Assembly: GCA_963746505.1 (NCBI GenBank) | Contig: CAVVBN010000014.1 | Span: forward strand, 72,823-136,822 | Origin: an uncultured delta proteobacterium | Lineage (GTDB): Bacteria; Desulfobacterota; Binatia; DP-6 | Direction: 5' to 3' | Length of the DNA: 64,000 bases | In this document: positions 32,977 through 56,164 of the stretch, in pieces | Position numbering within the stretch: position 1 is the stretch's first letter | How the letters are laid out: every line of letters begins with the position of its first letter | Position numbers and translations under genes: made by a program | Notes under the pieces: generated by a model | Databases searched by the model: none | Seen by the model: only the letters and a program-made list of their open reading frames with translations | What the model was told of the DNA's origin: nothing

Positions 32977-33002
32977 GCCCGGAGGGAATCGAACCCCCGA
33001 CC
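32977..33002 (-). repeat. 26-bp tRNA-like (T-arm plus 3' acceptor) element, copy 1
   Basis: Minus strand reads GGTCGGGGGTTCGATTCCCTCCGGGC. It is identical to 56100-56125. No complete cloverleaf could be folded from the flanks. Confidence 0.6.
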
Positions 33003-33077
33003 CTCAGGCTCGACGCCTTGCGAGAGCATCGCCGTCGCAGCCCCGGTGCCACGCGAGCGTCGCCAAGACGTGCCGGC

Positions 33078-34386
33078 TCATGCCGCCGCGTCCTCGCGTG
33101 CGAACCAGACCGTCGAGACCGTCGCGAGCGCCGAGACGACGAACAGGAGCCCGAGCATGTTCTGCCAGCCGCCCGGTCGATCCACGATCGCGCCCCCGCC
33201 GAACTGGTAGAGCATGGCCGCGGCGTAACCCGCCGCATCGATGAGCCCGATCAGGACGCCGCAGTGCGGGCCGCCGAACTCGATGGAGAACACGCTCATC
33301 GGCAGATAGTAGGATGGGGCCACGCTCAGCCCGTACAGGAACAGCACGACGGCCGTCAGCGGCGAACGCCGTCTCCGGGGCGAGCGAGGCGCGCCCCATC
33401 GCGAACAAGGCCCCGAGGCACAGCGCGGCGAAGACGAGCATCCCGCCGAGCAGGAGCGGTCGTCCCCTGCGCGGAACGCGGTCGTAGACCCAGCCGCCGG
33501 CGAGCAGGGCCACCAGACAGCCGGCCGGGAACACCGAGGATGCGGTCGCGGCCTGCGCGGGGGAGATGTGAAGGGTCTCCTTCAGATAGAGGGGGAGGAA
33601 GCCGATCACCTCCATGAGTACGGTCGTGCACATGAGGCTCACGCACATCAGCCACACGCGACCACTGCGCGCGAAGTGGAGCAGGGCCTCGCGGAGGCCC
33701 GTGCCGTCGAGCGGGTGCGACTTCGCCTCGCCGCCCGCGCCGGCGCTCGGCGGGGGCAGGCCGGCGTCGGCAGGGCCGGCCTTGAGGAAGAGGAATATCG
33801 CGGCGATGACGGCCGCCGCCAGCGCTGCCGCGGCGACGAAGACCTTCGGCCAGCTCGTCAGCAGGAGCAGGCGCCCAAGCACGAGGGTCGACAGCACCGA
33901 GCTCAGGCGCGAGCTCGTGGAGATCACGCCCCACACCTTCGCGTAGCGGTCGGGTTCGTACCAGGCCGCGATCAGCTTCGACATGGCCGGCCAGCCAGCG
34001 GCGGCCGACAGCAGCATGGCGAAGTTCAGGAGGCAGAACAGCACGAATCCGCCGGCGACCGCGAAACCCGCGGCCGCGGCCGTGGTGACCGAGAGCGCCA
34101 GCAGGAACACCGTGCGCCCGCCGAAGCGATCGGCGACCGCACCGCCGAGCAGCTTGCCCGTCACCATGCCGGCCGTCCCCCAGCCGAGGATCGCGCCGAA
34201 CATCGTCTTCGTGAGGCCGAGCGCGGGGTCCTCGACCATGGCCGGGCTCGCGACGTAGATCGCGGTGCGGCACAGGATGAAGCCCATGTACCCGACGTAC
34301 ATGCAGCCGAGGATGATCAGCTCCCAGCGCAGGCGCCTGCGACCCTGTCCGCCATCAGGGCCACCATTGACGTATGGCATGGTCAT
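33078..34386 (-). CDS. MFS transporter (organophosphate:Pi antiporter GlpT/UhpC-like), frame broken near 33355
   Basis: The first 340 aa carry MFS motifs (GKLLGGAVADRFGGR). The last about 90 aa (TM11-12; LFLYGLSVAPSYYLPMSVFSIEFGGP) are in a different frame (ORF 33347-33078). Confidence 0.7.
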
Positions 34387-34852
34387 ATACTTGTGGTTCT
34401 GGCACGCGATGAAGCAGGGACCGAGGTAAACCCCGAAATCGGACGTTAGCCCCCTGCTTCCCGCTACCCCCCAGCTCGCGCGGAATCCGTTTGGGGGGTC
34501 GGTCCCCCCCTTTTCGCACTTCGTAACTGCTCGGCGTTCCACAGAGGCCTCAGTCCGTCGCGCTTCGCTTCCGGTCTGCATCTGGCCTGTCGTGCCCAGC
34601 AACTCGCACGTACAGCGCAACTCGGAGTGGAGGTCGCCGACAGGCTTGCCGTCGATGTGGAAGAGGATCTCAAAGTCTTCGCCCAACCGCGCGGCCGTGA
34701 GAAGCTGCGGGCGCGGCCTTCCCGACATCGCGAACTCGAGCGCTGCCAGAGCACAGCGACTCTAGCATCAGCGCCGTGGCACCATTCCTGCTGTCCCAAT
34801 CTGCATCAGCCGCAGACCGCTGGCGCGGTGGCGGAGCGGCGGGAGTTTTCAC

Positions 34853-36961
34853 ATGGCCAGGCTCATGCTCGTTGCCGTTCTTGTTCTCGGTCCCCTCGGC
34901 TTGGGGGGGCGGGCCGAAGCCGCGACTTTCACGGTCGCGAGCACCGAAGACATGGTCGATGCGCTGCCAGGGGATGGCCTCTGCGCCACGGCCACCGGGA
35001 CCTGTACCCTCCGCGCGGCGGTGCAGGAAACCAATTCCCTGGGCGGGACCAACACCGTCCTCCTGCCGGCCGGCACGTACACCCTCACGATCCCCGGAGC
35101 GGACGAAGACCTGGCGGCCACCGGCGACCTCGACATCATGACCGACCTCACCGTGACCGGTGCGGACAGGAGCAGCACGATCATCGACGGCAACGGACTG
35201 GACCGCGTGTTCCATCACCTCGATCTCTTCCCCACCTCGACCCGGTTCGTGCTCTCGCACGTCACCGTCCGGAATGGAACAGCGTCGCAGGGAGCGGCGA
35301 TTGCCAGCTACGCCATGGGGGAACTCGCCCTGTCCGACTGCACGATCACGGAGAACCACGGTGACGATGCCGTCTTTGCGGACTCCAGCGGCTTTGCGAT
35401 GTCCGACATCGAGGTCAGCAGGAATACTGGAACGGGCATGGTGCTCGGCGGTCCAGGCACTCTCCAGGCCGTGACCGTCACCGCCAACGGCGGCACAGGC
35501 ATCGACGTCCAGGCCGACACGACGCTGACGGATGGGCTCATCGCCGACAACGGTGGCGCAGGCCTCAGCGACCTTGGTGAAGGCAGCATCGTCCCCGTGT
35601 GTAACCTCCTCCAGCTCACGCACACTCGCGTCCTCCGCAACGGCCGCGGCATCGTGCTGGGCACCGAGTGTAATCTCTTCTGTACCGACTGCGTGATCGC
35701 CGACAATTCCGGTGACGGAATTGGCAGCGACGGTGGGATGTACCTGGAGGACAGCAGCGTGACCGGGAACGGCGGCGGAGGGATTTTCGCGGGCGGACAT
35801 GGGGCAAACCTCTACGGGGTCACCCTGTCCGGCAATCACAATACGTTCCCGGGTGGAGCGATGTTCATCAGCACGTTCGTCCTCCATGAGGACGGCAGTA
35901 CCGACGCCGAACCGGTGATCATCGACCGGACGACCATCAGCGGGAACAGCGCCGACGGAGGTGGGGGCGGTGTGTTTCGAGACCGGGGCGCCCTCGTCAT
36001 CAGCAATTCGACCATCGTCGGTAACACGGCGACCACTGGCAGCGGAGGTGGTATCGCCATCGTCGACAACCCTTTTGACGCGTCCCCTCCCGCTCCCACG
36101 ACGATCGAGAACACCATCGTCGGGGGGAACGGCGATGGCAGCGGCGGCGCCCCGGATTGCGCCGGCGCGCTCGTCTCCAACGGTCACAACCTGATCCAGT
36201 CCCTCGCGGGCTGTTCGCTGACCGGCGACCTCGCCAGCAGCATCTTCGGCCGCGACCCACTGCTCGGTCCCCTGACCGACAACGGTGGTCCTACCCTCAC
36301 CCGCGCCCTCCTGGCCGGCAGCCCCGCCATCGACGCAGGCCCTGCGACCTGTGGTGACGTCGACCAGCGTGGTCGGCCCCGCCCGCAGTTCGTGACCTGC
36401 GACATCGGGGCCTACGAGTTCGCCCCCGCCTGCAGTCCTCCTTTCCCTGCCAAAGGAAGCTGTCAGACAGCCGATCCCGAGCGTTCACGCCTGTTGCTGA
36501 AGGACGACGTCGACCCCACCCGCAGCAAGCTCACGTGGAAATGGCGGAACTCCGGGCCAGCGACGAAAGCAGATTTTGGCTCGCCCACCTCATCGACTGA
36601 CGTGACGTGGTGCATCGGTGATGATGCCGGAAATATCCTGTCGAGCGCCGTCGCTCCGGCGGGTGGCATCTGCTTCGACGCGCCCTGCTGGCGAGAGATG
36701 AATGCGGGCTTCAGCTACAAGGATCGCGATCTGTCCCCCCAGGGCATTCAGGGGATCACCCTCCGCGCCGCGCCGTCCGGGGCGGGGAGGCTGTCGGTCA
36801 AGGGCAAGGGCAAGGGGTTGAACCTTTCGATGCCCGCGCTGCCAATGACCCCACCCGTAACAGTTCGGCTCGCGCGTAGTGACTCGCCCATCTGCTGGGA
36901 GGCCACGTTCTCGTCGCCTCGGCGGAACGACGGGCAGCAGTTCACGGCAAAGTCGGACTAG
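34853..36961 (+). CDS. Secreted choice-of-anchor-Q-type right-handed beta-helix protein
   Basis: Signal peptide, CTLRAAVQETN motif, Gly/Asn-rich parallel beta-helix repeats, and NGGPTLTRALLAGSPAIDAG...CDIGAYEF near the end of the helix. C-terminal 170-aa domain. Confidence 0.75.
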   Translation: MARLMLVAVLVLGPLGLGGRAEAATFTVASTEDMVDALPGDGLCATATGTCTLRAAVQETNSLGGTNTVLLPAGTYTLTIPGADEDLAATGDLDIMTDLTVTGADRSSTIIDGNGLDRVFHHLDLFPTSTRFVLSHVTVRNGTASQGAAIASYAMGELALSDCTITENHGDDAVFADSSGFAMSDIEVSRNTGTGMVLGGPGTLQAVTVTANGGTGIDVQADTTLTDGLIADNGGAGLSDLGEGSIVPVCNLLQLTHTRVLRNGRGIVLGTECNLFCTDCVIADNSGDGIGSDGGMYLEDSSVTGNGGGGIFAGGHGANLYGVTLSGNHNTFPGGAMFISTFVLHEDGSTDAEPVIIDRTTISGNSADGGGGGVFRDRGALVISNSTIVGNTATTGSGGGIAIVDNPFDASPPAPTTIENTIVGGNGDGSGGAPDCAGALVSNGHNLIQSLAGCSLTGDLASSIFGRDPLLGPLTDNGGPTLTRALLAGSPAIDAGPATCGDVDQRGRPRPQFVTCDIGAYEFAPACSPPFPAKGSCQTADPERSRLLLKDDVDPTRSKLTWKWRNSGPATKADFGSPTSSTDVTWCIGDDAGNILSSAVAPAGGICFDAPCWREMNAGFSYKDRDLSPQGIQGITLRAAPSGAGRLSVKGKGKGLNLSMPALPMTPPVTVRLARSDSPICWEATFSSPRRNDGQQFTAKSD

Positions 36962-37241
36962 CATCGGTCATTCCTCGGGCTCCGGGTCCAACACGAGCCC
37001 GAGGCCGTCGGCCTGACGCCCGACCAGGCGCACGATGGCCGTCCGGTCCAAGGAGGTTCCGGCGTTCGCGGGCGGTCTCTCCCCTGCCCTCACCATCACC
37101 GCCCCGTCGCGACGCGGGTTCGTGACGACACTCGCGGACGTCGGATGGGATGGAGGGAACATGACGGCTCGGCACTGGGGCCTCGACTACCTGTGACCCA
37201 TCAATTACGAGGTAGGGAGGCCGTGAACCAGTCAGGAATCC

Positions 37242-39239
37242 ATGTCGACCCCACCATCGGGTAACCAGGGCGCGCGCGCGCCAGGGGGCCAACCGACGCA
37301 AGCGACAAGGGGGACGTCCGGTCAGCCCAGGATACGGCCGCAGGCATGGTGGCTGCTCTTCGCGGCCCTCATGGTGGCCAACTATCTGCTGTCGCGAACC
37401 GTGCTACGCGAGCCGGTCTCGGTCAGCGTCCCCTACACCTTCTTCAAACGGCAGGTCCAAGAGGGGAACGTCGCGGACGTGACCAGCGTCGGCGATGCAA
37501 TCCGCGGCACCTTCAAGGCGGCGGTCACGTATCCATCCGAGGGAGAACCCACGGCGTCGGAATCGCCTGCCTCCGCACACCCTCCGCCGCGCACCTCGAC
37601 GCAGTTCACGACGCAGCGGCCGGTCTTTGCCGATCCGGGTCTGGAAACCCTACTCGAGGCGAAGGGGGTGGCGATTCAGGCCGAGGACGAGAGCCGTTCG
37701 TCCTGGCTCGAACTGCTGGTCGGCTTCGGTCCCACCCTGTTGCTGATCGCGGCCTTCGTGTGGCTCAGTCGCCGGGCTGCAGCGGCCGGTGGGGGCGGAC
37801 TGTTCAGCCTCGGCCGCAGCCGCGCCAAGCGCTACAGCGAGGAGCAGCCGAAGGTCACCTTCCAGGACGTCGCGGGCATCGACGAAGCCGAGAACGAGCT
37901 GATCGAGATCGTCGACTACCTCAAGAACCCCGCCAAGTACGTGCGGCTTGGCGGGACCATGCCCAAGGGCGTGCTGCTGGTCGGCGCGCCGGGGACCGGC
38001 AAGACGCTGCTGGCGCGGGCGATCGCGGGACAGGCAGGTGTCCCCTTCTTCAGCCTGAGCGCCTCCGAGTTCATCGAGATGATCGTGGGCGTCGGCGCCG
38101 CCCGCGTCCGCGACCTGTTCCGTCAGGCCAGGGAAGCCGCGCCCTCGATCATCTTCATCGACGAGCTGGACGCCATTGGCCGCGTGCGCGGTAGCGGCGT
38201 GGCCTTCGGCGGGCACGACGAGCGCGAGCAGACGCTGAACCAGATACTCACCGAGATGGACGGCTTCGACCCGCGCGAAGGCGTCATCGTTCTCGCGGCC
38301 ACCAACCGTCCCGACGTGCTCGACTCGGCGCTGCTGCGTCCGGGCCGCTTCGACCGCCGCGTCGTCGTGCAGCGCCCGGACCGCGCCGGTCGCGCCGCAA
38401 TCCTCAAGGTCCACACCAGGAACGTGCCTCTCGCTCCCGACGTCTCCCTTGCGCGCGTCGCGGCGGAGACGCCTGGTCTGGTGGGGGCAGACTTGCGCAA
38501 CCTGGTCAACGAGGCGGCGCTGTTGGCGGCGCGCAAGGGCGCGAGCGCCGTGCGCGCCCAGGACTTCGCCGAGGCGATGGAGAAAATCACGCTGGGGCCC
38601 GCCCGGCACATGCTCCTCACCCCAACCGATCGGGAACACACCGCCTACCACGAGGCGGGCCATGCCCTGCTCGCGCTGCTGGTGCCGGGCAGCGATCCGG
38701 TGCACCGCGTCTCGATCGTGCCGCGCGGCATGACACTGGGTGCAACCTCGCAGCTCCCGGTCGATGATCGCACCAACTACGCGGAGGACTACCTGCGCGC
38801 GCGCATCACCGGTGCCCTCGGGGGGCGGGCCGCCGAGCAGCTCGTCTACGGTGTCGCGACCACGGGCGCCGAGAACGACCTCCAACAGGTCACCGAGATC
38901 GCCCGACAGATGGTGCTCCGCTGGGGGATGAGCGAGAAGCTCGGCCCGATCAGCTTCGTCGCCCCCCGGGACGACGGGCTGCCGCCGGCCTTCCAGCACC
39001 AGCCGTACAGCGAGGCGACCTCGGAGCTCATTGACGCCGAGGTCCGGCGGATCGTCGAGGAGTGCCACCGCGAAGCCGACCGACTGTTGGCCGACCACCG
39101 TGACAAGCTGGACGCACTTGCCCAGGCCCTGTTGAAGGAGGAGTCCCTCGACGAGCAGGCGATCAAGGAGGTCACCGGCCTGACCGAGCCGCCGGCGCGG
39201 AACGACGCGGGCTCGCGCGTGGAGGCAGGCAAGCGCTAA
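37242..39239 (+). CDS. ftsH: ATP-dependent zinc metalloprotease FtsH
   Basis: Walker A GAPGTGKT, Walker B IIFIDELD, an SRH region and the HEAGH zinc site. Two N-terminal TM helices. Confidence 0.9.
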
Positions 39240-39516
39240 CCCGTCGGTGCCGCCCGACCGGGTCGTGCGATCCTTCGCCGAGGTTCATTGAACCTCGGCG
39301 AACGACGGCTGTACGTGATGCGGGCGGATGGCACCGACCGCTACCTCGACTCGTTCCCGGTCGCGGTCGGTCGCAGGGAAGTGACGTCGTCAGGCTCTAC
39401 GACCGCGTCCGAGTCGGTACGACGGTGATCGTGGAACCGTAACGCGGGGCTTCACAATGCTCCGCCTCTGGTGTAGCCCTACGAACGCGTCGGCTTCACA
39501 CGAAGGAGATTCAAAG

Positions 39517-40782
39517 ATGGTTCAGGCGCGTGCTCGAAGGATTCCTTGGTTCACCTCTGCCCTCGCCCTCACGGTCGCGCTCGGCGGGACCGGTTGGGCT
39601 GCCCGCACCGGGACGGCGCTCGTCCCGACGGATGCGGCACCGCCCCACGCGCGCGGTCGCGCGCAGGTGGTTGTTCCCCCGGGACGGGGCGGGAGCAAGC
39701 TCCTCGTCCTCGTCCACGGCCTGCCGGCGCGCGAACGCTTCGAGATCACGGCCGACGGTGTGCGGATCGGCTCCCTGCAGACCACGCGCGGAGGCAACGG
39801 TCTGGCTCTCTTCTCCAGTCGCACCTCGACCCGCGGTCGGCTCCGCCCGCGACTTCTCGGATTCGATCCGCGCGGTGTCAGCCTCGCCGTCGTGAATGCG
39901 AACGGCGAGGAGATCCTGGTGGGCAAGCTGCCCGGAGGATCCTCCGACCGGATCGCGTGCTGTATCACGAAGAACGAGGAGTCGGAGTGTGCGCGCGTCA
40001 CCGCCGCGCTGTGTGCGTCGGTCGGCGGCACCGCAACCGAGCAGTCCTCCTGCGTTCCCGACCCCTGTGCGCCGCCGCCGGGCGACGTCGTCTGCTGTCT
40101 ACCCGGCAGCGCCGAGGGCGCCGTGGTCGATGGCACGATCCACTGCGACGCCAACCTGGCGCCGGCCGCGTGTGTCCATGCCGGCGGAACGCTCATCCAC
40201 GCGACGTCGTGCACCCCGAACCCGTGTGAGCCGCTACCACCCCCGGAGAGGGCGCGCTGCTGTCTCCCCGACGGCGACGGTGCCGTCTGTGAGGATCGCC
40301 AGCCGCTGGACTGCGTCCACGCCGGCGGCAAGCCGATCCGCGCCGAGTCCTGTGACCCGAACCCGTGCCCGCCCGTTCAGGGCGCGTGCTGTCTCCCGTC
40401 GAGCGCCGAGTGCGCCTTTCTCGATCGCCACCGTCCGAGCACGTGCCAGGATGGGCTCACACCCGACGCCTGCACCTCCGCCGGTGGCAGCTTCGTGAGG
40501 GAAGCGGCATGCAGCGATCATCCCTGCGTCGCGCCCCCGCCGGTGCTGGTTGCGTGCTGCGTGCCGGAGGACGGCGACGAGACGGAGTGCAAGCTGACGA
40601 CCGCCCAGCGCTGCGCGGGGGTCCATGGGACCGTGAGCGACGCCACCTCGTGCAGACCGGATCCGTGCGAGCAGGGCGACGATGACGAGGACGGTCACGG
40701 GCACGGCGACGGTGGCAAAGGTGGCAACAAGGACCACGGAAACGGCCACGGCGACCACGGTTGGCCGCCGTGGAAGCGGTAG
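39517..40782 (+). CDS. Secreted cysteine-rich repeat protein with a His/Gly/Asp-rich C-terminal tail
   Basis: Signal peptide. N-terminal beta-rich region followed by five copies of a 45-55 aa module (CC-x6-12-C-x5-8-C-x3-GG-x6-8-C-x-P/D-x-PC). The tail reads DDDEDGHGHGDGGKGGNKDHGNGHGDHG. Confidence 0.6.
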   Translation: MVQARARRIPWFTSALALTVALGGTGWAARTGTALVPTDAAPPHARGRAQVVVPPGRGGSKLLVLVHGLPARERFEITADGVRIGSLQTTRGGNGLALFSSRTSTRGRLRPRLLGFDPRGVSLAVVNANGEEILVGKLPGGSSDRIACCITKNEESECARVTAALCASVGGTATEQSSCVPDPCAPPPGDVVCCLPGSAEGAVVDGTIHCDANLAPAACVHAGGTLIHATSCTPNPCEPLPPPERARCCLPDGDGAVCEDRQPLDCVHAGGKPIRAESCDPNPCPPVQGACCLPSSAECAFLDRHRPSTCQDGLTPDACTSAGGSFVREAACSDHPCVAPPPVLVACCVPEDGDETECKLTTAQRCAGVHGTVSDATSCRPDPCEQGDDDEDGHGHGDGGKGGNKDHGNGHGDHGWPPWKR

Positions 40783-40842
40783 GACGCCGCCCAGGGTCGA
40801 TCGACCGCGAGTTGCCGGTCGCGCCAGGCACACGTTGCCTGG

Positions 40843-42872: not shown

Positions 42873-43031
42873 GAGCCGGGCCACCGAGCGCGGGCTCGGC
42901 CAACCCCCGTTCGCCCACGTGGAGGGGTCCCGCGGGGGGCGAGCACCCCGAAATGCCCGTCCCGTGCAGAAAAACCGCTTGACAGCTCGAGCGCACGGAA
43001 CATAGTTCGTCCCACAAGGGGGGCGAGATAT

Positions 43032-44321
43032 ATGCTCGGTCTTCCCGCGCTGCTTGCGGCCGGCCTCATGCTGACGTGGGGTGGCTCGGTCGCTCGCGCC
43101 GACCATACCGTTTTCGACTACGCGGTCGAACGGTTCGAGGCCGACGGCAACATCTTCGGGTCCGCCGACGGGGTGTTCGACCTGATCGACGAATTCGACG
43201 ACGGCATCCTTGGCCCGACCTTCGGGCACCTCTTCGGCACCACGATCGAGCAGAACGGGGCGATGCATCTCAAGAACCCCGGTACCCACTTCTCGCTCAA
43301 CTTCCCCTGGACGCTCGATCAGAGCGACGTCAACAGCACGAGCCAGCTCGTGCGGGAGGGACACGGCGCCGGAGTCTACCGAACCATCTGGGTGCCGACG
43401 GCAATCGGGGTCAACCACTATCTCCACATGACCTTCTGGGCCGGGACCGACGTCGTCGGGATCGCCCTCACGAATTTCGACGAGACGATCACCAACCTCT
43501 ACGATCCGCCCGATCCAAGTGCGATCGGTCTCCGGATGACCGCCCATCACGAGCGCTTCGAGAACTTCGCCTTGACCAACGTCTCGCTCGAGCACCACCC
43601 CATCGATGCAGTCCCCGGGGCCATCGTCTTCGAGCTGCGTTTCGACGACACGACACGCACGGTGAGCGTCGGGTTCAGCGTCGACGGGGGCGCGACCTTC
43701 GATCGCGGCTTCGCGCCGATGCCGATCGGGTTCGCGCCCGGCAGCCAGGCCGGTGCCACGATCCTCGTCGGCGCCGACCCGTACGAAGCCAACGCCGCCC
43801 CGCCCCCGCCCGAGTGCCCGCTCACCTTCTTCCTCGACCAGGCGACGATCAAGAACGGCGGCGGCCCGGCGGGCAAGGGTGCCCTGACGCTCCATGGGGC
43901 GATCGGGAACGACCTCCTCGATCCGCTGAATCAGGGCATGACGCTGCTGCTCGTCGACATGGGCGCGGGCGGCGGGGAGCCGGCGTGGACGGTCGCGATC
44001 CCGCCCGGCGGGCCGGGAAGCGGGTGCGATCCCCGCGACGGCTGGCGGTCGGGATCGCGGGGCCGGGCCAGCTACCGGAACGTGTCGGGCGCGTTCCCGC
44101 CCGGATGTGCACCGGGAACGGCCGGGGGGCTGGTGAAGGCCAAGACCAAGGCCGCGGCCTCGGACGTGAGGGTCATGGTCAAGCGCGCAACGCTCCCGTC
44201 GCTGGTCGGACCGCTGGTCGTCGGTTACGTGAACCCCGCGGCGGCGGCGGGTCAGTGCGGCAACTGGCTCTCCGCGCCCACGGCCTGCGTCTCGAGCGGG
44301 TACAAGCTGCGCTGTCGGTAG
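43032..44321 (+). CDS. Secreted hypothetical protein, uncharacterised family X, paralog A (of 56184-57473)
   Basis: Signal peptide. N-terminus HTVFDYAVERFEADGN is almost identical in the paralog. Conserved INHYLHM, CDPRDG and a C-terminal Cys pattern. Confidence 0.6.
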   Translation: MLGLPALLAAGLMLTWGGSVARADHTVFDYAVERFEADGNIFGSADGVFDLIDEFDDGILGPTFGHLFGTTIEQNGAMHLKNPGTHFSLNFPWTLDQSDVNSTSQLVREGHGAGVYRTIWVPTAIGVNHYLHMTFWAGTDVVGIALTNFDETITNLYDPPDPSAIGLRMTAHHERFENFALTNVSLEHHPIDAVPGAIVFELRFDDTTRTVSVGFSVDGGATFDRGFAPMPIGFAPGSQAGATILVGADPYEANAAPPPPECPLTFFLDQATIKNGGGPAGKGALTLHGAIGNDLLDPLNQGMTLLLVDMGAGGGEPAWTVAIPPGGPGSGCDPRDGWRSGSRGRASYRNVSGAFPPGCAPGTAGGLVKAKTKAAASDVRVMVKRATLPSLVGPLVVGYVNPAAAAGQCGNWLSAPTACVSSGYKLRCR

Positions 44322-46730: not shown

Positions 46731-46798
46731 CGGCTTCCGCGGTCGGCGCCTCCGCGTGGCCGAGGGACCCCGCTGGAGACCGGCGCTGACGAGGGGCG

Positions 46799-47440
46799 TC
46801 ACGGGATCGTCGTCGTGGTGCTCGTCGACGTCGAGGAGGTGGTCGACGTCGTCGAGGTCGTTGACGACGTCGTGGTGGTCTTCGGTGGCTTCGGCAGCGG
46901 GCACCGTTCGACCGTGAAGGTGACCGGCGGCGTCACGACGTCGATGATCCCGACGCGCCGGCGCAACCTGCGGAGCGCTCGCGCGCAGAGCGCCGCACGC
47001 CGTGAGGGCGCGACGCCGAGCGTCGCCAGCCGGGCATCGGAGCAGATCGTGAGGGAGAGGGTGCAGGCGATCGGCTCCTCGTGCCGCGCCACGTCCGAGA
47101 GCTGCAGCGTTCGCGTCCCGACGAAGCCTCCCAGCGCCGATGCCGGGGACAAGGCCACGCCGGCGTAGAACGGCACCTGGTCGGACTCGGTGGGTCTGAT
47201 CTCCCGCGTGCGGAAGCGCAGCGCCTGCCGGATCGCCCTGCGTTTCTGGTCGCTCACGGATGCTGGCGCCCCGATCGGGAGCTGCAGGCTGTACTTCAGG
47301 CCGATCTGCACGCGATGGAGCTGCTCGGCGCGGTCCGTGCACGTCACCTTGAGCGAACACGTCACGACGAGGTGCGCCGGAAAGCGTGCCTCGGCCGGCA
47401 CCCCACCGCCGGAGGCGAGCAGCGCAGCCATCGAGACGGC
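46799..47440 (-). CDS. Secreted hypothetical protein with a Thr/Ser-rich C-terminal tail
   Basis: Hydrophobic N-terminus. The tail is TTTTSSTTSTTSTTSSTSTSTTTT. The start is uncertain (47440-47560). Confidence 0.45.
   Translation of the reverse strand, partial: AVSMAALLASGGGVPAEARFPAHLVVTCSLKVTCTDRAEQLHRVQIGLKYSLQLPIGAPASVSDQKRRAIRQALRFRTREIRPTESDQVPFYAGVALSPASALGGFVGTRTLQLSDVARHEEPIACTLSLTICSDARLATLGVAPSRRAALCARALRRLRRRVGIIDVVTPPVTFTVERCPLPKPPKTTTTSSTTSTTSTTSSTSTSTTTTIP
46800..46880 (-). repeat. Low-complexity codon-repeat (ACG/TCG/ACC) tract encoding the poly-Thr/Ser tail
   Basis: Visible in sequence as gtcgtcgacgtcgaggaggtggtcgacgtcgtcgaggtcgttgacgacgtcgtggtggtc. Confidence 0.6.
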
Positions 47441-47552
47441 AGCCGTGCGCAGCACGCTTGCCGGGCTACGTCCCACGCCATTCACGGTGCCATGCCACCG
47501 CGCCACGAGCAACGTCGCGAGTCTCCGCGTCCCGTCCAGCGCAGGAGTGCAG

Positions 47553-48610
47553 CTATGCAACGCGCCGCAGCTCTTCCGCCAGCTTCCTCGCCGCCTCCAG
47601 CATCGCCGCCCGGCTCGACGGGCTGATCGACGTCATGTTGCAGAAGCCATGGACCAGCCCGGCATGGCGCCGCAGCCACGTGCGCACGCCCGCGTCCTCG
47701 AGGCGGCGGGCATACGCCTCGCCCTCGTCGCGCAGCGGATCGAAGCCGGCGGTGAGGACGAGCGCGGGCGGGAGCCCCGAGAGGTCGGGTGCGAGCAGTG
47801 GCGAGGCGCGGGGATCGCGCGCGGCGTCGGCGTCCCGGAGATAATGGCCGATGTACCAATCCATCTCACCCGCCGTGAGGAAGAAGCCCTCGGAAAAGAG
47901 CCGATACGAGCAGGAGCGGTTGGCGAGATCGGTGACCGGGTAGATCAGCATCTGCGCCGTGGGACGCGGCCCACCGTCGCGCGTCGTCACCAGCGAGACG
48001 ACCGCCGACAGGTTGCCGCCCGCGCTGTCGCCCGCGACGGCGACGCGCCGGGCATCGAAGCCCAGGGTACTGGCCTCGCACGCAGCCCAACGAAAGGCCG
48101 CGACGGCGTCGTCGACCGCGGCGGGAAACCTGTGCTCCGGCGCCAGGCGATAGTCGATCGACAGCACGCCGGCGTCGACCTCGCGCGCGAGGAAGCGGCA
48201 GACACCGTCGTGCGTATCGAGATCGCCGACGACCCAACCACCGCCGTGGTAGTAGACGATGAGCGGGCGCACGCGCCGCTCGGCCGAGGGGACGTAGAGC
48301 CGCGCCCGCAACGAGCCTGCGGGCCCCGGGATCTCGAGCGACTCGACGCTTGCCACCGCCTCGGCGAGCCCCGCCGCGAGCGCAGCCGTACGGCGGATGT
48401 CGGCGCGCGCTTCGAGCGGCGTCATGGTGTCGAGGGCGCGATGGCCCAGCAGGGTCGCGAGCCGCAGGATCAGCTGGATGTCGGCGTCCAGCTCGGCATC
48501 ATCGAGTCGCACCGTCCCGCCGCCGGAGAGGAGGCGGAGTACACCGGGCGGCAACCAGTCGAGTGCGGCCGCGACCCCCCACCCGAGCAAGGCGAGCAGG
48601 CGGTTCTTCA
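47553..48610 (-). CDS. Alpha/beta hydrolase, HSL-family carboxylesterase/lipase
   Basis: HGGGW oxyanion motif, GDSAGGNL nucleophile elbow and a signal peptide. Alternative start at 48650. Confidence 0.85.
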
Positions 48611-48729
48611 TGTCGAGCGGCGCTCTACACCGAGCCGGCTCCGCTGTCATGCCAGCCCGCTGCCGGCCGGCCGATTGACGGCTCGCCGGCCGCGGGACTA
48701 CGGTTCAGCCAGTGCACATCCCCCGCTTC

Positions 48730-49101
48730 ATGCGGAGCGTGAACCGCGTCTTCACGAACCCCGTGATGGGAACGATCGCGTGGATCGTGCCGCCGCTGGC
48801 AGTCGTGCACCACGTGGGGCGAAAGAGCGGCAAGCCCTATCGCTCGCCGGTGATCGCGATCGCGAGCGAGCATGGCTTCGTGATTCCGATGACGTACGGG
48901 CGGGACGTCGACTGGGCGCGGAATCTGCTGCACGGCCGTGGCGGCGAGCTGGAGCGGATGGGGCGGCGGGTGACGGTGCGGAATCCGAGGATCGTGGGGC
49001 TGGACGAGGCCCGGCCGCATCTTCCGGCGCCGGCGCGGGCGTTCTTCGGAATGATGAACTTCCCGGGCTTCGTGCTGCTCGACGCGTCGAGCGCGCGCTA
49101 G
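48730..49101 (+). CDS. Deazaflavin-dependent nitroreductase-family protein (DUF385), second copy
   Basis: NRVFTNPVM...HHVGRKSGKPYRSPV...ASEHGFVIPMTYG matches the DUF385 pattern. Confidence 0.6.
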   Translation: MRSVNRVFTNPVMGTIAWIVPPLAVVHHVGRKSGKPYRSPVIAIASEHGFVIPMTYGRDVDWARNLLHGRGGELERMGRRVTVRNPRIVGLDEARPHLPAPARAFFGMMNFPGFVLLDASSAR

Positions 49102-49230
49102 TCGTCCCCGGGGGCCACCGTTCAGCGTGGGCACGTCGCGTCGGCGCAGGATGCTGCCCAGCTGGGATATCCCGGCCCTGGGGAGATGGTCGTTGGATGG
49201 ATGCGGATGAAGGCGCTCGCCGAATCGCCG

Positions 49231-50649
49231 TCAGCGTGCCGTCACGATGGTCCGCACGGGCAGGCGGCGCGCGCGCCCGCAGGCGCGCGCGTATCCGTTG
49301 CGGCACGCCTGGGCATACAACTGATGCGCACCGGCGACGTCGCCGTCGTCCTCTCGGAGTTGCGCCAGCACGTCGCACCCCCCCGGGTCGCCAGCCGCGC
49401 ACGATCGGGTTGCGAAGCGGAGCGCGCTGGCACCGCTGCGCTCGTCGTTGGCGTACATCCGGGCGAGCGTGTGGCAGTCGTATGCGGACCACCCGTCGCA
49501 GCTACCATCCAGCAGTGCCACGGCCTGCGCGTGCAACCGCTCGACCTGCTGGGGGGTGCACTGCGCGCGCGGACCCGGATAGGACAGGTGGTCGGTGCAC
49601 AGCTCGGCGAGGTGCGCGCAGGCGTGCCCGTCATCTCCATCGCAGGCGGCGCGCGCCAGGTTCGCGGATCGTGCCACGCTGCGCCGCGACCCCTCGTCGT
49701 CGAGATACAGCTCGGCGAGCGCGCCGCACCCGAACGCGTCGCCACCGGTGCAGGCCTTCGAGAGGAGGCTCCAGGCCTTGGTGGTGTCGCGGGCGACCCC
49801 GCGTCCGTCCCGATACAGGAGACCCGCCCGCGCGCAGCTGCCCGTCTCGCCGCGACTGCAGCGCCGCATGCAATCGGCGGCGTCGTAGGGCCGGCAGCGC
49901 GACCGCGCAACCCGCAACCGCCGACCGGTCGGTGGCGTGGCGTCCTCATGGTCGGGCGGCAGCGGGAACGCGCGCAGCGACGCAGCGAGCTCCGTGTACA
50001 GGTCGCCGACCCAGGATGGAGGCCGCCGCAGCCGCGCGAGCGCCGCCCGCGGCTCGACCCGCCGGAGGTCGAGCGGGCTGATGATCATCTCCACGTGCTC
50101 GGTGCCGATGCGACTCGTGAGGACGAACAGCTCCTCGATGGCGTCGTCGCCGACCGGAAGACAGCCATCGGAGACGGCGTCGCCGTGGACCATGATGTCA
50201 CCGCCGAGCGCCGCCCGGCCGTCGTCCCGGGCGCGGAGCTGGTCGACCGCGTTGGGATAGTCGACGCGCAGGGACAAGTGGTAGCGGCTGTTCGGGTTCA
50301 GGGCCGCGATACGGTACACGCCCTCGGGAACCTGATGGTCGCCCTGGCGGAGCTTCGGCCCGAGCTGCCCGCTGGCCGCGAGCACCAGATAGGAACGGAC
50401 GAAGCGCCACCCGGCGCCGCCGTCGGCCCACAGCTCGAGCCGTCCCTCGTCCTTGAGGGCGACGAGCGCCATCGCCTGTGGCGGGTAGACGCCGGCGCGC
50501 GCGGCGATGAGGGGGGCGATTCGCTGCTCGGCCTCGCGGAGCGCCGCAGGCGATACGGCTGCTCGCGCCGGTCCCGCGACCAGGCCCACGACGCACATCA
50601 TCAACGCCAAGCGACGCACTCGACGAATTCCTCTCCCCCGCCCCGCCAT
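49231..50649 (-). CDS. L,D-transpeptidase catalytic (YkuD) domain fused to Cys-rich Sel1-like repeats
   Basis: Signal peptide. YkuD-like HQVPEGVY...IMVHGDAVSDGCLPV. Four C-terminal repeats of A-x-x-AC-x-GGD-x-x-GC-x-x-LA-x-LY. Alternative start at 50601. Confidence 0.55.
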   Translation of the reverse strand: MAGRGRGIRRVRRLALMMCVVGLVAGPARAAVSPAALREAEQRIAPLIAARAGVYPPQAMALVALKDEGRLELWADGGAGWRFVRSYLVLAASGQLGPKLRQGDHQVPEGVYRIAALNPNSRYHLSLRVDYPNAVDQLRARDDGRAALGGDIMVHGDAVSDGCLPVGDDAIEELFVLTSRIGTEHVEMIISPLDLRRVEPRAALARLRRPPSWVGDLYTELAASLRAFPLPPDHEDATPPTGRRLRVARSRCRPYDAADCMRRCSRGETGSCARAGLLYRDGRGVARDTTKAWSLLSKACTGGDAFGCGALAELYLDDEGSRRSVARSANLARAACDGDDGHACAHLAELCTDHLSYPGPRAQCTPQQVERLHAQAVALLDGSCDGWSAYDCHTLARMYANDERSGASALRFATRSCAAGDPGGCDVLAQLREDDGDVAGAHQLYAQACRNGYARACGRARRLPVRTIVTAR

Positions 50650-50762
50650 CCCCGCCGTGCCCGGAGCCAGCGCCCGTCGGGTACCCTGATCCGGGGCATC
50701 GGTCAACCGAAACCCCTTGGACGCGAAGCTCCCGGGGGTACCCTCGGCGGTGTAGAAGGTCG

Positions 50763-51449
50763 ATGAGCCCACGACACATGGCAGCCTCGACGACGCGGCG
50801 CGGATTGCTCATCGGGATGACCCTCCTGCAGGTGGTCGTCACGCTCGCGCTGACCGCGCTCGGCTGGGGCGGTTGGACCGCACTCGTCGCGAACCCAGCG
50901 CGCGCCGCCTTCGTCATCGTCGTCGTCGTGATGACGCTGGTCGCGCTCGCCTCGCCCGTGAACATGAGCAGCGGCGAGCGCGAGGACGTCGGCAACCGGC
51001 GCATCTTCGCACCCACGGTCGCGGGCGTGCTGCTCCTCACCTGGCTCATGCCGTTCATGGACCGGCGCGACCTCTGGACTTTCGACGGCGACGCGGTCCG
51101 GTGGGCCGGCGTCGTCCTCCTCGTCGGCGGCGGCGTGCTCCGCATCTGGCCGATGTTCGTGCTCGGGCGGCGCTTCAGCGGGCTCGTGGCCATCCAGCCG
51201 GGGCACGAGCTCGAGACCGGCGGGCCCTACCGCTACATCCGGCACCCGAGCTACCTCGGCATGATGCTCGGGTTCGTCGGCTGGATCCTCGTGTTCCGCA
51301 GCAGCGTCGGTCTGGTCGCGATCGCGCTCGGGCTCCCGCTGCTCCTCGACCGGATCGAATCGGAGGAGGCGCTCCTCGCCTCGCACTTCGGGACTGCGTA
51401 CGCCGACTACCGCCGGCGGACGTGGCGGCTGCTGCCTGGCCTCTACTGA
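50763..51449 (+). CDS. Isoprenylcysteine carboxyl methyltransferase (ICMT)-family membrane methyltransferase
   Basis: Multi-TM protein with the C-terminal LETGGPYRYIRHPSYLG...RIESEEALLASHFG signature. Confidence 0.8.
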   Translation: MSPRHMAASTTRRGLLIGMTLLQVVVTLALTALGWGGWTALVANPARAAFVIVVVVMTLVALASPVNMSSGEREDVGNRRIFAPTVAGVLLLTWLMPFMDRRDLWTFDGDAVRWAGVVLLVGGGVLRIWPMFVLGRRFSGLVAIQPGHELETGGPYRYIRHPSYLGMMLGFVGWILVFRSSVGLVAIALGLPLLLDRIESEEALLASHFGTAYADYRRRTWRLLPGLY

Positions 51450-51577
51450 GATGTACCGGCGAGGCTCCGTCGGGATTCCCGACGCGCCAAGGACGAACGG
51501 CGACGCCAGCGGCTTTCGATGCCGGCACCCACTGCCTCCAGCGCCTCATCCCTGAGACTCGTCGCCCACTGCGAACG

Positions 51578-52434
51578 TTACCTGGTCGCGTGCGGCCCTC
51601 CCTGAATTGCGGATCGAAGATCGCCGAGCGCGTCCAGACACGCCCGCGTCGCGGTCCGTTTCTCGTGAATCGAGACATCGACCGACTTCACGTTCGTGTT
51701 CAACCGGGAGAGCCGGATCACCTCTGCCGCGACTCGCTGGTATTCGGCCCACGCCTGCGTCCCATCGGCCACAGCGCCCGCAGCCGGGGATGGGACCGAC
51801 GGACCTGCTTCCCGGAGGGCCGCGTCGACCGTCTCGCCGAGGCGGCGAATGCGCGCTTCAAGCGTCGTCATCTCGGCATCCGACGCCTCGGGTATGTGTA
51901 CGAGCAGCAGGGACTGAATCCGCGCAATCGCGGTGGCAGCCGTCGCGAGCGAGCGGACGACCGCGACGTCTGTACACGCCAGCATCATGGCATCGACCGA
52001 CGTGATGAACCGGTCGAATGCGACCGAGCCTTCCTGCACCAAGAGATGTGCGGCCTTCAGATTGGTGTTGGCGACGGCAAGGTCGAGCAACCGCGCATCG
52101 ATCGCCTTGAGTTCATCCCACTTCGCGGCGAACGCGGCCAGCTTCTCGACTTCGTCTCGACGCGCATCCGCATTGATCAGCTCGGCGAGGCGCGTCATCG
52201 AGTGGCCGATCTCCTCTGAAGAACGCTTCGATCGCGCCGCGAACTCGGCCGATTCCTCGTCCGTCATGGCGAGGACGGCGCTCTTCTCGGCCTCCACGGA
52301 CTCGAGGAGGCGGTGCTGGATGTTGTTGACCAACTCCAGCTTCTCCACCTGCCGCAGAAGCGCTGGCCGACCGCACGCACCAATCCATACGACGGCGATC
52401 GAGAGAATTGCGATGCGTCTGGAGATTCGCATGA
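51578..52434 (-). CDS. Lipoprotein with a four-helix-bundle (4HB_MCP-like) coiled-coil domain
   Basis: Signal peptide with lipobox IGAC. Mostly helical heptad-like sequence. Confidence 0.5.
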
Positions 52435-53107
52435 CTCGCTCAGGAGAGGCCGATGGCTCTTTGACACAGCGCGTGTGCGAAACACAACTGAACATCAGCA
52501 GATGCATGCCCGTGCGCCGCGATCGTCGGCTGTCATCTTCGTCACCGCAGCTGACGGCCGTACCATCACGATCCAGAGCGTGCAGTTCATCTTCGACACA
52601 GAACGCTGGCCGCGTCGTCGCTCGAGATCGGCCAATGGACCGCGTACGGCCTCCCGAGGGGTCGGCGACAAACGGAACGCCCGCCCTCGGACCCTGCGCC
52701 CTGCAGTCGGGCGTGGACAGCGCCATCATCCCGGGCGGGAGCATGAGCATCAGCCCGTAGAGGAACCACCCGACCAGCAGACCCGCCGGCCAGACGCCGC
52801 AGGATGAACCCCACGAGCCGACCGGACGCGTAACAGGCCCAGACCTCGCGCACCCAGTTCAGCCGGACCAGGGGGAACTTGGGCGGGATCTCGCCGTGGA
52901 GCAGTCCCGTCAACGTCCAGGCGAGTGGACAAAAGTGGCTGGGACCGGACTACGGATATATCGAGTTGATCCGTCTTGCTCCTCCACGCCAAGTGGATGG
53001 CCCGTTTCCCTGCGTTTTCCGAGGAGAGCCGTATGGCACCGCTCCTGCAACGAGAAAGGTGCAACGGCATGCGGGAAAACGAAACCATGCCGGAGAGGGG
53101 AAACGAT

Positions 53108-53366
53108 CATGGTACCGACGATTCGCGAGGCAGGACCGACGGGTGCAACGAAGCACGCGGCCGCTCGGGTTGGGGAGCGGGTCATCCCGTGCCGTCCGGC
53201 CCCAGCGGACGGGCGCGCCGAGCCGTGGGGTGGCTGGCGCCAAGGATGGGGCATGGTCGCAGCGACGGCGATCCTGGGAGTCATGCTCGTCGTCATCATT
53301 CGCCACGCTTCGTCGGCGCTTCTGGTTGCCACCCCATTGTCGTTCGTCCCACCCTACGCCATGTAG
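53108..53366 (+). CDS. Small protein with a C-terminal TM helix (hypothetical)
   Basis: ATG has a GAGAGGGGAAAC RBS. 86 aa. Confidence 0.3.
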
Positions 53367-53573
53367 GGACGCGGGCATCCGGCCCAACGCACCAGGAAGG
53401 CCATGGTCGGCTCGATGCTCGTATGCCTCGTTCCGCGGCGAGAGGGGGACGACTCAAATTGAGTCCTCATGCAGCGGACATCTCCGGTGTCTACGATACG
53501 GCGAGCATTTTCCGTTGACAGACGGGTAGATTCCGCCATACGGTCTCGCGACACGGTCGATGGGGAGGGCCTC

Positions 53574-54383
53574 GTGAAGACCACGATCGTCGCGGCTGTG
53601 CTCGTAATGCTGTGTCCGGAGGCCCGCGCGCTCGACATCACGTCGTGCGGGCAGGTGGTCCCGGATGGCGAGACCGGGATTCTTCAGGCCGACCTCGTCT
53701 GCCCACCCGCACCTCCGGGCCCGCCGTACTTCGCGGTGCAGCTGAATCGCGGGGCGACGCTGGAGATGAACGGCCACTCGATCACCGGTCAGCAACTGGG
53801 CGTCTTCTGCTTCGGCGACTGCACGGTGCGCGGCCCGGGCGAGATCACCGGTGCGAGCTCGAACGCGATCGGTGCGCCGATCGGCATACGCGTCGACGTG
53901 TCAGACCTCGACATCCACGACAACCACGGCATCATGGACGTCGCTGGCTCGAAGCTGACCCTCGCCAACATCACCGCGTCGCACAATGCCTACGGGATCC
54001 GCGCCGCCAGCCTGAAGGCGACCAACGTCACGATCAACGACAACGCCGGCGATGCGTTGCTCGTCCAGAAGCGACTCATCGCCACGGACGTCACCGTCAC
54101 GAATACCGGAGAAGGCGGCATCTCGACGTTGGGATCGATCCGCGCCACCCGCCTCGTCGTGTCCGGGGCCGCGGGCGTGGGACTGTTCTCGCGCGGTCGC
54201 GCCAAGCTCATGGATTCGAGCGTGACCGGCAGCGGGTTCCTGGCGCTCGACCTGGTCACGGGTCGTAAGCCTCGGCTGCTCGGCACATCGACATGCGGTC
54301 ACAGCGCGGGGCTGGTGAAGGATCCGGCGAACCCGGGGATGCTCCTCATCGGACCGACCTGGGGTGTGTGCGCGAGCGACTGA
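53574..54383 (+). CDS. Secreted beta-helix-like protein, paralog B (of 40843-41655)
   Basis: GTG at 53574 has a GGGGAGGG RBS. Signal peptide and the shared motifs DITSCG...ADLVC and STCGHS...VCASD. Confidence 0.6.
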   Translation: MKTTIVAAVLVMLCPEARALDITSCGQVVPDGETGILQADLVCPPAPPGPPYFAVQLNRGATLEMNGHSITGQQLGVFCFGDCTVRGPGEITGASSNAIGAPIGIRVDVSDLDIHDNHGIMDVAGSKLTLANITASHNAYGIRAASLKATNVTINDNAGDALLVQKRLIATDVTVTNTGEGGISTLGSIRATRLVVSGAAGVGLFSRGRAKLMDSSVTGSGFLALDLVTGRKPRLLGTSTCGHSAGLVKDPANPGMLLIGPTWGVCASD

Positions 54384-54573
54384 CGCGCCCGGCCTGCGTT
54401 CACCCGCGGGATCGTCTCTCGCGCCCCCCAGCGAACCCGGGAATCGCCCGGTGAGGCTCTCGGTTCCCGACGGGCACAGTCGGCGCACAGGAGAGCATGA
54501 TTTCGATCGTCGCGATGTGACGGCCTGAAACTGCTTGACAGCGGCGCGCCCCGACGCGCATGCGTCGGGGTGA

Positions 54574-56164
54574 GGGGGGATCCATGAGAATCGCAGGTCG
54601 CACGGACCAGCGGCGTGGTCACACCGCGCTCGTCGCGGCCATCGTGCTGGCACTCGAGTCTCACCCGGCTGGCGCACTGGACGTCACCGGCAGGTGGAGG
54701 CTGAGCGCCGGCGGGAGCGAGCAGATCGCGGACTTCGTCCAGTCCGGAACGAGCCTCCAGATCACTGCTTTCGAGGGCACTACGTTGACCGGCACCATCG
54801 GCCCCGACGGCGCCTTCACGGTGAATGTGTTTCTTCCCGGGTGCGAGGGCGGCCTCGGGGGGCGGGTCGTCGGCGAGACGCGGCTCGCGGGGACGTCGGC
54901 CGCCCTCTGCCCGACCCTCTCGGAGGCGCTCATCAGCGGCATCCGCTGTGAGTGCTTCGACGACAACGCGACGAACGGCGACGGCTGCGACTCGCGCTGT
55001 CAGATCGAGCCGTGCTTCACGTGCGCGGGATCGCCATCGCTCTGCGTGCCGTCCGGCGACGGTGCGACGTGCGATGACCGGAGCGCCTGCACCAGCGGCG
55101 AGACGTGCTCCGCGGGCGTGTGCGGCGGTGGAAGCCCGGTCAGCCCGTGCATCAACCTCGGCGGGCAGTGGCTCGAGCATGTGTCGGTCCCGACACTCGG
55201 CGTCGAGGAGGACGCCATCGTCGACGTCGCGCAGGTCGGGAGCATCCTCGAGTTCGGTGGATCGCCGGCGAGCCTGCCGCTCACCTTCGGGACGATCGAC
55301 CCGGCCACGGGTGCCATGACGCAGGCCACCGGCGTCGGGGTGTTCCTCTGCCCGGGAGCGACCGTCTTGGGGGGGACGACAGCCCCGGATGGCAACACGT
55401 ATACGCTGTCAGGTCTCCGCTACGCACTCGACCTCGACGAATGCGAGAGCTACCCGGCGACCGTCACCGGTACCCGATGCGTGGGCCCGTGTGTGCTCCC
55501 GACGTCCACGACCAGCACCACCACGAGCACCAGCACGACGACGACCACCGCCCCGCAGCTCCTGTCGGGAAAGCGGCTCGTCCTGAAGAATCACGCCGAT
55601 CCGACCCGTCGGAGGCTCACGCTCGATTCCAGGGACGCCGGTCTGTCGATCGGTGGCGGCAACGGCTCGCCCGACGATCCGACCGTCGCCGGGGCGACGT
55701 TGCGCCTGCGGACAGCACCCGCCTGCGTTGGCGCGTGCGATGCGATCTACGGCCTGCCGGCCGCAGGCTGGCGGCTCCTCGGCGAGCCCGGTGAGAACAA
55801 GGGATATCGGTATGTCGACCGGCGGCTGGCCGCCGGACCCGTGAAGCGGGTGACGGTGAGGCCCGGGAAGGCGCTGACGGTCGTCGCCACGGGCGCGCAG
55901 CTCGCGCACCCGCTCGCAGAAAACCCCGAGCCGGTCGACGTCGTGCTGGAACTCGGCGATCAGCGGTCATGCCTGAGGTTCGGAGGCACCACGCGATTCA
56001 GGCCGGGGCGGACGTTTCGGGCGAGCAACGCGCAGGCGCCGGGCACGTGTTCAGGGGTCCCGAGAGGGCGGGCACCACAAGTACCCGTCCGTAGAGTGCG
56101 CCCGGAGGGAATCGAACCCCCGACCGCCTCCCGGGCTGGCGCGGCCGCCCCCGTTCAGGCGTAG
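54574..56164 (+). CDS. Secreted protein with a myxococcus cysteine-rich repeat and a Thr-rich linker
   Basis: Signal peptide. CECFDDNATNGDGCDSRCQIE matches the myxococcus Cys-rich repeat pattern. PTSTTSTTTSTSTTTTT linker. The C-terminal domain resembles that of the 34853 protein. The last 25 codons are encoded by the tRNA-like repeat. Confidence 0.6.
56100..56125 (-). repeat. 26-bp tRNA-like (T-arm plus 3' acceptor) element, copy 2
   Basis: Identical to 32977-33002 in the same orientation. It lies inside the 3' end of the 54574 ORF and is flanked by a GCGCAC-GGTTC-GTGCGC hairpin at 56161-56177. Confidence 0.6.

Follow-up and report, generated by a model that had tools for sequence, protein, structure and literature searches.

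The 64-kb window analyzed here, a stretch of 64,000 nt from contig CAVVBN010000014.1 of an uncultured delta proteobacterium, contains two copies of the 26-bp sequence GGTCGGGGGTTCGATTCCCTCCGGGC, both on the minus strand and bracketing about 23 kb. They lie at 32977-33002 (copy 1) and 56100-56125 (copy 2) and resemble the 3′ end of a tRNA gene. Copy 1 is situated in a 405-nt spacer between an MFS transporter gene, whose true stop (33078-33080) lies about 75 nt ahead of the 26-mer, and a gene encoding a secreted repeat protein. Copy 2 follows a gene here called P0001 and overlaps the end of a convergent open reading frame (ORF). The two copies and their neighbors are arranged as follows.

32977-33002, minus strand: exact 26-mer of copy 1, matching tRNA-Arg positions 45-70
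32959-33044, minus strand: full element of copy 1, a degenerate fragment of about 70-85 nt assigned by homology to tRNA-Arg(TCG)
56096-56125, minus strand: 30-nt block of copy 2, matching tRNA-Arg positions 45-73 plus one base, with the 26-mer at 56100-56125
33078-34386, minus strand: MFS transporter gene (Pfam MFS_1), upstream of copy 1 on the same strand
31790-32673, minus strand: gene for a secreted repeat protein, following copy 1 and starting about 305 nt beyond the 26-mer
56184-57473, minus strand: P0001 gene, 429 amino acids, function not assigned, same strand as copy 2 and directly upstream, with 58 nt between its stop and the 26-mer
54560-56164, plus strand: ORF for a cysteine-rich secreted protein, convergent, its last ~22 codons antisense to copy 2

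These two sites are the only exact matches to the 26-mer in the window. No third match appeared there when up to three mismatches were allowed, none occurred in 100 dinucleotide-preserving shuffles, and a longer window repeat containing the copies was looked for and not found. The preliminary description of this DNA, which had called the direct repeat exact and too long to be due to chance, is borne out by these counts. Beyond the 26-mer, the flanks of copy 1 and copy 2 do not align. The repeat itself consists of the last four bases of a variable loop, a T-arm (GGGGG-TTCGATT-CCCTC) and five bases of a 3′ acceptor strand; both copies thus have the TTCGAnT loop and the 5-bp stem expected of a T-arm. 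The sequence after the 26-mer is CGGGC-CGC in copy 1 versus CGGGC-GCAC in copy 2. The GCA of copy 2 constitutes the remaining acceptor strand and the discriminator base of tRNA-Arg, the match runs to GCAC, and this 30-nt block is the sole part of copy 2 retained with certainty. The copy-1 element consists, in this order, of a mutated anticodon loop (CTTCGAA changed to CGTCGAG), the T-arm, the acceptor 3′ strand and a short trailer.

We scanned one genome per species for the 26-mer, obtaining at least 118 matches at 117 or more loci, and ran ARAGORN on these loci. Among the 118 matches listed, 93 form the 3′ end of an intact tRNA-Arg gene (49 with anticodon TCT, 24 TCG, 19 CCT and 1 GCG), confirming the earlier proposal that both copies are tRNA 3′ fragments. 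The remaining matches listed comprise 17 in tRNA-Met, one in tRNA-Lys and seven orphan fragments, and the loci span many phyla, Anaeromyxobacter included. The six orphans that are not truncated by a contig end, and one orphan on a viral contig, start in or just before the anticodon loop, which is the usual form of attachment (att) site fragments. The viral contigs with the 26-mer, which carry two phage tRNA-Arg genes besides this orphan, are not related to the window. Judged from its sequence, the source of both copies is tRNA-Arg, and specifically tRNA-Arg(TCG) by homology to the longer family members described below. Because both copies match a near-invariant tRNA-Arg sequence, their identity is no proof that one was copied from the other.

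Neither copy is a functional tRNA gene. At copy 1, ARAGORN reports a single candidate.

32973-33052, minus strand: "tRNA-Ala(cgc)", 80 nt, a false positive that joins the real T-arm to a chance upstream hairpin

This candidate was rejected as a valid tRNA, since it reaches 18 bits with the Rfam tRNA model RF00005 (E = 0.68 in a 700-nt search) against a gathering threshold of 29 bits. Its supposed anticodon arm is the chance hairpin, located upstream of the true, mutated ancestral anticodon arm. The canonical 7-bp acceptor stem is absent, pairing there requiring a bulge or mismatch, and the D-arm is a mere hairpin of 3-4 bp. Copy 2 yields neither an ARAGORN tRNA call nor an Rfam tRNA match. Across the 64 kb there is no valid tRNA or transfer-messenger RNA (tmRNA) and no Rfam match at gathering level, and tmRNA, YrlA and other Rfam families were rejected for the two loci with none at threshold; the weak mascRNA-menRNA matches obtained there with cmscan score 16.7 and 18.9 bits versus a threshold of 42.5. 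The 60 nt upstream of each copy resemble the 5′ parts of 111 real tRNAs no more than shuffles do, and the folding of both loci on either strand is no more stable than that of shuffles (z from -1.3 to +0.7, with +0.67 for the region of the ARAGORN call). An intact tRNA had been denied for either locus before any tRNA finder was run, and this statement holds.

Using a frame-repaired MFS protein as query, we found relatives of the region, among them contig_100508 and contig_100507 from one ENA sample (L131 and L134 in the following), which share 94-96% identity with the window over common blocks. In both, the copy-1 element is kept at the same site after the MFS gene (called e3 there), and ARAGORN again gives tRNA-Ala(cgc). 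Its tail reads CGGGCGCACTCTACGGGACGG in L131, a near-match to the tail of copy 2, and is slightly diverged in L134; both orthologues have GCAC where window copy 1 has CGC. The copy-2 block equals e3 of L131 except for one extra G within the G run.

The most complete member of this family, e1, lies about 145 nt upstream of a metallophosphoesterase gene in L131 and L134. It matches a real tRNA-Arg(TCG) at 47 of 50 nt from position 25 to the 3′ end, has neither the acceptor 5′ strand nor a D-arm, and scores 27.8 bits with Rfam, below the threshold of 29. ARAGORN takes e1 of L131 as tRNA-Arg and makes no call for e1 of L134, where the loop of the D-region hairpin, AGCGACGAC, has no GG and so does not provide G18 and G19. 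Window copy 1 is 81% identical to e1 of L134 across 70 nt (E = 4e-11), and the copy-2 block is identical to it at 30 of 30 positions (360-389). The anticodon arm is retained to differing extents among the members; the parts they have in common are the 30-nt T-arm/acceptor block and a trailer of about 15 nt.

A covariance model was built from seven training sequences, both window copies included, and run with search filters off. In the 64 kb it found the two copies only, at 83.5 bits for copy 1 (32959-33042) and 55.7 bits for copy 2 (56081-56160), both being scores of training sequences, while the next match reached 16 bits. By this model, the family has two members in the 64-kb window, three in the 11 kb of L131 and two in the 4.75 kb of L134. 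Terminal inverted repeats and target-site duplications were not found, the flanks of the copies sharing only the block and the short trailer. The elements form a small local family, and the searches of the window, L131 and L134 do not support a high-copy element like a repetitive extragenic palindromic (REP) sequence or a MITE. Of the dispersed repeat family that had been suggested as one possibility, the family is real, but its high-copy form is not seen in these sequences.

L131 contains a further element, e2 (6745-6826), with an anticodon arm (TCG) and an acceptor 3′ strand as in e1 and an Rfam tRNA score of 26 bits, also below 29. Its T-stem is strand-swapped and fully paired (CCCCG-TTCGAAT-CGGGG versus GGGGG-TTCGATT-CCCTC). 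Either this stem came from a different tRNA source via a hybrid att site or it reflects a structural constraint; the foreign T-arm is compatible with a hybrid site in which an element carrying another host's tRNA end supplied the 3′ part.

Some other sequences near these elements were kept apart from the family. A candidate third member in the window at 37077-37152 was rejected, since the 77% match concerns only the 5′ flank of e1 and not the tRNA-like part. This 79-nt stretch upstream of ftsH (37242) is 77% identical to positions 255-330 of L131/L134, ahead of the metallophosphoesterase gene. At either site it occupies a position about 80-165 nt before the start codon of a divergently oriented gene and contains a hairpin-like motif, ACCCGCGTCGCGACGGGG; it may represent a shared leader or operator. 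A GGCACAG-N4/5-GGGCACA motif was observed in intergenic DNA on the strand opposite the tRNA-like elements (window 54473-54506 and 28171-28210; L131 222-239, 420-439 and 6861-6880). At several sites it is located 30-90 nt upstream of start codons, and it resembles a sigma-54 -24/-12 promoter. Motifs of this type near e1 and e2, and those at 54473-54506 and 28171-28210, were not treated as part of the element, the matches being weak (E = 4e-5 to 3e-4).

The anticodon arm with TCG and the T-arm that e1 and e2 keep, the possible remains of a D-arm 3′ strand (GTAGAGCG) and the acceptance of L131 e1 as tRNA-Arg by ARAGORN would all suit tRNA-Arg(TCG) genes that decayed in place, for example duplicates that lost their function, with no mobile element involved. 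We consider this origin unlikely. The tRNA homology stops sharply, at about position 25 in e1 and at 45 in copy 2, with a perfect 3′ part, and uniform decay gives no such step. Moreover, the 5′ acceptor strand survives in no member, and point mutation cannot yield the wholly different yet fully paired T-stem of e2.

It is most improbable that the repeat is an artefact of sequencing or assembly. The assembly does contain several frameshifts of the kind that long-read indel errors produce, but copy 1 recurs in two contigs assembled independently, and an independent short-read contig with the neighbor gene of copy 2 breaks off precisely at the block of this copy. This Logan contig (ERR12035935, 5013 bp) corresponds to window 56096-61100, with an identical P0001 gene and glycosyltransferase cluster. 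It stops 88 nt past the P0001 stop, at window position 56096, the final base of the 30-nt block, presumably at a k=31 assembly-graph branch caused by a repeated or variable junction.

The distance between the blocks differs among the three variants. From the e1 or copy-2 block to the copy-1 block it measures 4.1 kb in L134, 9.7 kb in L131 and 23.1 kb in the window, and the interval content is common to them only in part. Segments of the window that recur in the relatives include the following.

51548-53400, minus strand: shared internal block, in L134 located between its two tRNA-like blocks, with a four-helix-bundle MCP sensor gene (Pfam 4HB_MCP_1) and its neighbor
60915-61132, plus strand: start and upstream region of the metallophosphoesterase gene (Pfam Metallophos), 93-95% identical to L131/L134

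According to blastn, L134 768-1421 corresponds to window 53400-52720 (84%) and L134 1467-2363 to window 52444-51548 (95%). The L134 interval also holds the MFS gene, and that of L131 other genes and e2. At the position by the metallophosphoesterase gene that is equivalent to e1, the window has the glycosyltransferase cluster instead. The 96% identity between L131 and L134 is lost about 8 nt after the 3′ end of e1, from where the two are unrelated; this places one junction at the element.

In two further relatives, L132 and L133, whose MFS genes are 92-94% identical, no copy-1 element follows, and the homology to the window ends 5-12 nt past the MFS stop; the element is also absent from the more distant L135 (MFS gene 80% identical). 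At the DNA level, the MFS gene by itself shows 92-94% identity across at least three unrelated contexts (window 33067-34392, L132 5866-7177, L133 694-1987 and L131 8693-10352). The edges of this homology fall within a few bases of the gene ends, and the gene behaves as a gene-sized mosaic block. In L132, a DDE_3 transposase fragment adjoins it. Two metagenome pattern scans, in which either copy was sought together with its trailer, gave no match.

These comparisons bear on the idea, raised in the preliminary description, that the bracketed segment is an old, decayed island, with copies 1 and 2 as the attR and attL repeats of a single 23-kb element that lost its integrase. The copies are perfect direct repeats, and, as at the two ends of a tRNA-associated island, they are fragments of the same tRNA in the same orientation; what varies among the three strain variants is the DNA between the equivalent blocks. 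Even so, we regard a single island as improbable. There is no intact tRNA at either end, and no intact target tRNA or tmRNA gene within the 64 kb. Pfam scans of about 60 ORFs across the window detected no integrase, excisionase, transposase or phage gene, so that the lack of an integrase reported earlier for the bracketed segment extends to the whole window. The interval instead encodes an FtsH equivalog, a two-component system, hydrolases and beta-helix secreted proteins, which are ordinary metabolic and regulatory functions of a chromosome. Its composition, for which a comparison with the flanks had been proposed, does not set it apart: the GC content is 0.687 versus 0.685, the tetranucleotide correlation (r = 0.993) is within the range of arbitrary 23-kb segments, and no break appears at 33-56 kb. 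The left flanks of the copies have no arm sequences in common. Finally, the 4.1-kb interval of L134 still has two internal blocks, 51548-53400 and the MFS gene, which makes the 23 kb a mosaic and not one unit. The shorter intervals of the relatives (4.1 and 9.7 kb) are mosaic, and no clean empty site was seen in them. The notion of a decayed 23-kb island is not supported by composition, gene content or the relatives.

Another possibility is that the T-arm/acceptor block is under selection as a cis element, either as an integron-like core site of a recombinase encoded elsewhere, which would shuffle the genes lying between blocks, or as an RNA signal (T-arm hairpin or tRNA-like minihelix) in the 3′ untranslated region of the preceding gene, acting in processing or stability. 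Five of the six members have the block unchanged (the sixth, window copy 1, has 26 of its 30 nt) beside diverged neighboring parts, the T-stem of e2 stays paired although its sequence differs, each window copy is found 58-75 nt past the stop of a same-strand gene, and the interval is polymorphic in one sample with no local integrase. However, the chances of such selection appear slim to us. Folding is no better than in shuffles, and no Rfam family reaches threshold. A conserved acceptor/T-arm fold with covariation, as expected of a functional tRNA-like RNA, was not found: the sole covarying stem is the T-stem of e2, for which a different tRNA source is an equally good explanation. Acceptor-like 5′ strands are imperfect and not the same in the two copies; by a rough estimate, pairings of this kind are expected by chance in GC-rich DNA. 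Elements e1 and e2 do not follow co-oriented genes, and orthologues of the neighboring genes in other lineages are not accompanied by the element. Those of P0001 (76% and 70% identity) have no element, no T-loop motif nearby and no shared context, and those of the glucodextranase (90%, 82% and 75% identity) lie in unrelated contexts with no T-loop motif nearby. By our estimate, 26 unchanged bases in three orthologues are not significant at about 5% divergence. Very doubtful, too, is a 30-nt block that acts as the active core for a recombinase encoded elsewhere and allows cassette-like gene exchange, as a tRNA-fragment analogue of an integron array. If the block were active for such a trans-acting recombinase, the region would be of greater interest.

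On balance, we favor the explanation that the 26-mers are displaced, non-functional 3′ fragments of tRNA-Arg(TCG), representing the cores of old att sites within a strain-variable region, and not the ends of one 23-kb island. Displacement by integrases is suggested because the family combines a sharp 5′ limit of homology (in the anticodon stem or the variable loop) with a perfect 3′ part plus trailer, direct orientation and a junction at the 3′ end of e1. The footprint of integrative elements, which had been put forward for the duplicated tRNA end, accordingly stands as the likeliest origin, with tRNA-Arg(TCG) as the source by homology. Such elements would have produced the fragments by recombining with the tRNA gene via a core site that reaches the 3′ end from either the T-arm or the anticodon arm. 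The recombinase genes responsible would no longer lie nearby. At present the blocks would most likely have no role beyond that of short direct repeats and fixed rearrangement junctions. This att-scar model predicts one intact tRNA-Arg(TCG) gene elsewhere in the genome, whose last 50 nt plus trailer CTnTACGGGACGG should match e1 and copy 2, and a few further fragments carrying GGTCGGGGGTTCGATTCCCTCCGGGCGCAC, some of them near tyrosine integrases.

Several observations weigh against displaced att-site fragments. There is no intact tRNA-Arg gene in the window, L131 or L134. With the exception of window copy 1 (26 nt), every member has a perfect 30-nt block beside a decaying anticodon-arm part, and this combination is not predicted by simple neutral decay of old scars. 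The interval is polymorphic inside one sample with no integrase, neither in the ORFs scanned across the window nor in the variable intervals of L131 or L134, and the compositional test for an island was negative. Most other junctions between the strain variants have no T-arm core, so that site-specific recombination cannot account for the whole mosaic. The points that fit poorly leave room for a block used by a distant recombinase or for a role at the RNA level, neither of which is positively supported.

Tested against known systems, the elements come closest to the tRNA gene fragments catalogued by Islander (Hudson, Lau and Williams 2015; classes of Williams 2002). There, 3′ fragments were recorded at 3760 of 3919 islands, with attP in the T-stem region for 1836 islands and anticodon-centred for 2083 (PMC4383910). 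Like those fragments, the elements described here are 3′-terminal pieces in direct orientation. Copy 2 begins in the variable loop/T-stem, e1 and copy 1 begin in the anticodon stem, and blocks 30-50 nt long fit both common attP classes. Unlike at Islander islands, no cognate intact tRNA, integrase or compositional signal lies within reach, and the Islander filters would reject the interval. Partial tRNA genes miscalled as canonical have been described by van der Gulik et al. 2023 (PMC9897764), including fragments that arise from mobile-element integration and can later be separated from the full gene by rearrangement. Their integration examples include a full gene and a recognizable element; here neither was found in the window, L131 or L134. 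The attB site of mycobacteriophage Ms6 has its core in the T-loop, at the 3′ end of a tRNA-Ala gene (PMC1762012). The copy-2 block likewise includes the T-loop, and its T-stem arms would form an inverted repeat around a 7-nt spacer. In contrast to the Ms6 site, no phage, attP arms or integrase were identified here, and the left flanks of the window copies have no arm-type repeats. With mascRNA, viral 3′ tRNA-like structures and YrlA, the elements share a T-arm with acceptor-like pairing nearby, downstream of a coding region; they differ in scores far below threshold, in a fold that is not significant and in not being conserved beside orthologous genes. The feature is probably a familiar scar of DNA insertion beside tRNA genes, and not a new type of element.

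The genes next to the copies require some comments. The ORF at 54560-56164, previously given with a start at 54574 and described as receiving its last codons from copy 2, does literally run across it. It has a GC content at third codon positions of ~0.88 in frame and a weak myxo_disulf_rpt match. In ORF 34853-36961, a paralogous C-terminal domain already stops at what corresponds to residue ~491, leaving about 43 codons of ORF 54560-56164 beyond it, so this tail, which crosses copy 2, is probably read-through and probably not native.

The MFS gene is frameshifted near 33360 (tblastn split 33361/33359), with intact homologues of 430-456 amino acids at 89-94% identity. The secreted repeat protein gene, which adjoins the element in L131 too, has a frameshift at ~32419; the L131 gene at 10382-11047 maps onto window 32673-32419 and 32419-32012 in two frames. 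Genes split by single frameshifts were thus noticed at 33355-33365 and 32415-32425, as well as in an AhpC/TSA-like ORF (16485-17456), and an amidase gene of L131 (3177-4228) is in three pieces. Because intact homologues exist, these frameshifts look like long-read homopolymer errors; it is also possible that the genes are recent pseudogenes.

P0001 has a paralogue within the interval, P0030 (43032-44321, plus strand; 40% protein identity), and a 43-nt stretch of the two genes is 93% complementary between the strands (43109-43151 and 57351-57393). Neither protein matched a Pfam or NCBIfam family, and homologues are widespread in soil metagenomes. Elsewhere in the window, ORF 46731-47168 contains an in-frame, 9-nt periodic repeat of the GTCGTCGAC type (46804-46881), and ORF 39457-40782, which matched no known family, three 56-nt in-frame repeats (40171-40667). 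A 570-amino acid protein encoded at 12778-14490 has three Kazal-type serine protease inhibitor domains, with internal 77-nt repeats at 13788-13864 and 14259-14335. To our knowledge, such inhibitor domains are uncommon in bacteria.

For the annotation of this genome, the ARAGORN "tRNA-Ala" (32973-33052) should be left out of tRNA gene counts, caution is needed with the final ~43 codons of ORF 54560-56164, and 33-56 kb should not be labelled a genomic island. The fragments mark a region of about 33-61 kb whose gene content differs among strains coexisting in one metagenome, and this region is usable as a marker of strain variation in an uncultured lineage.

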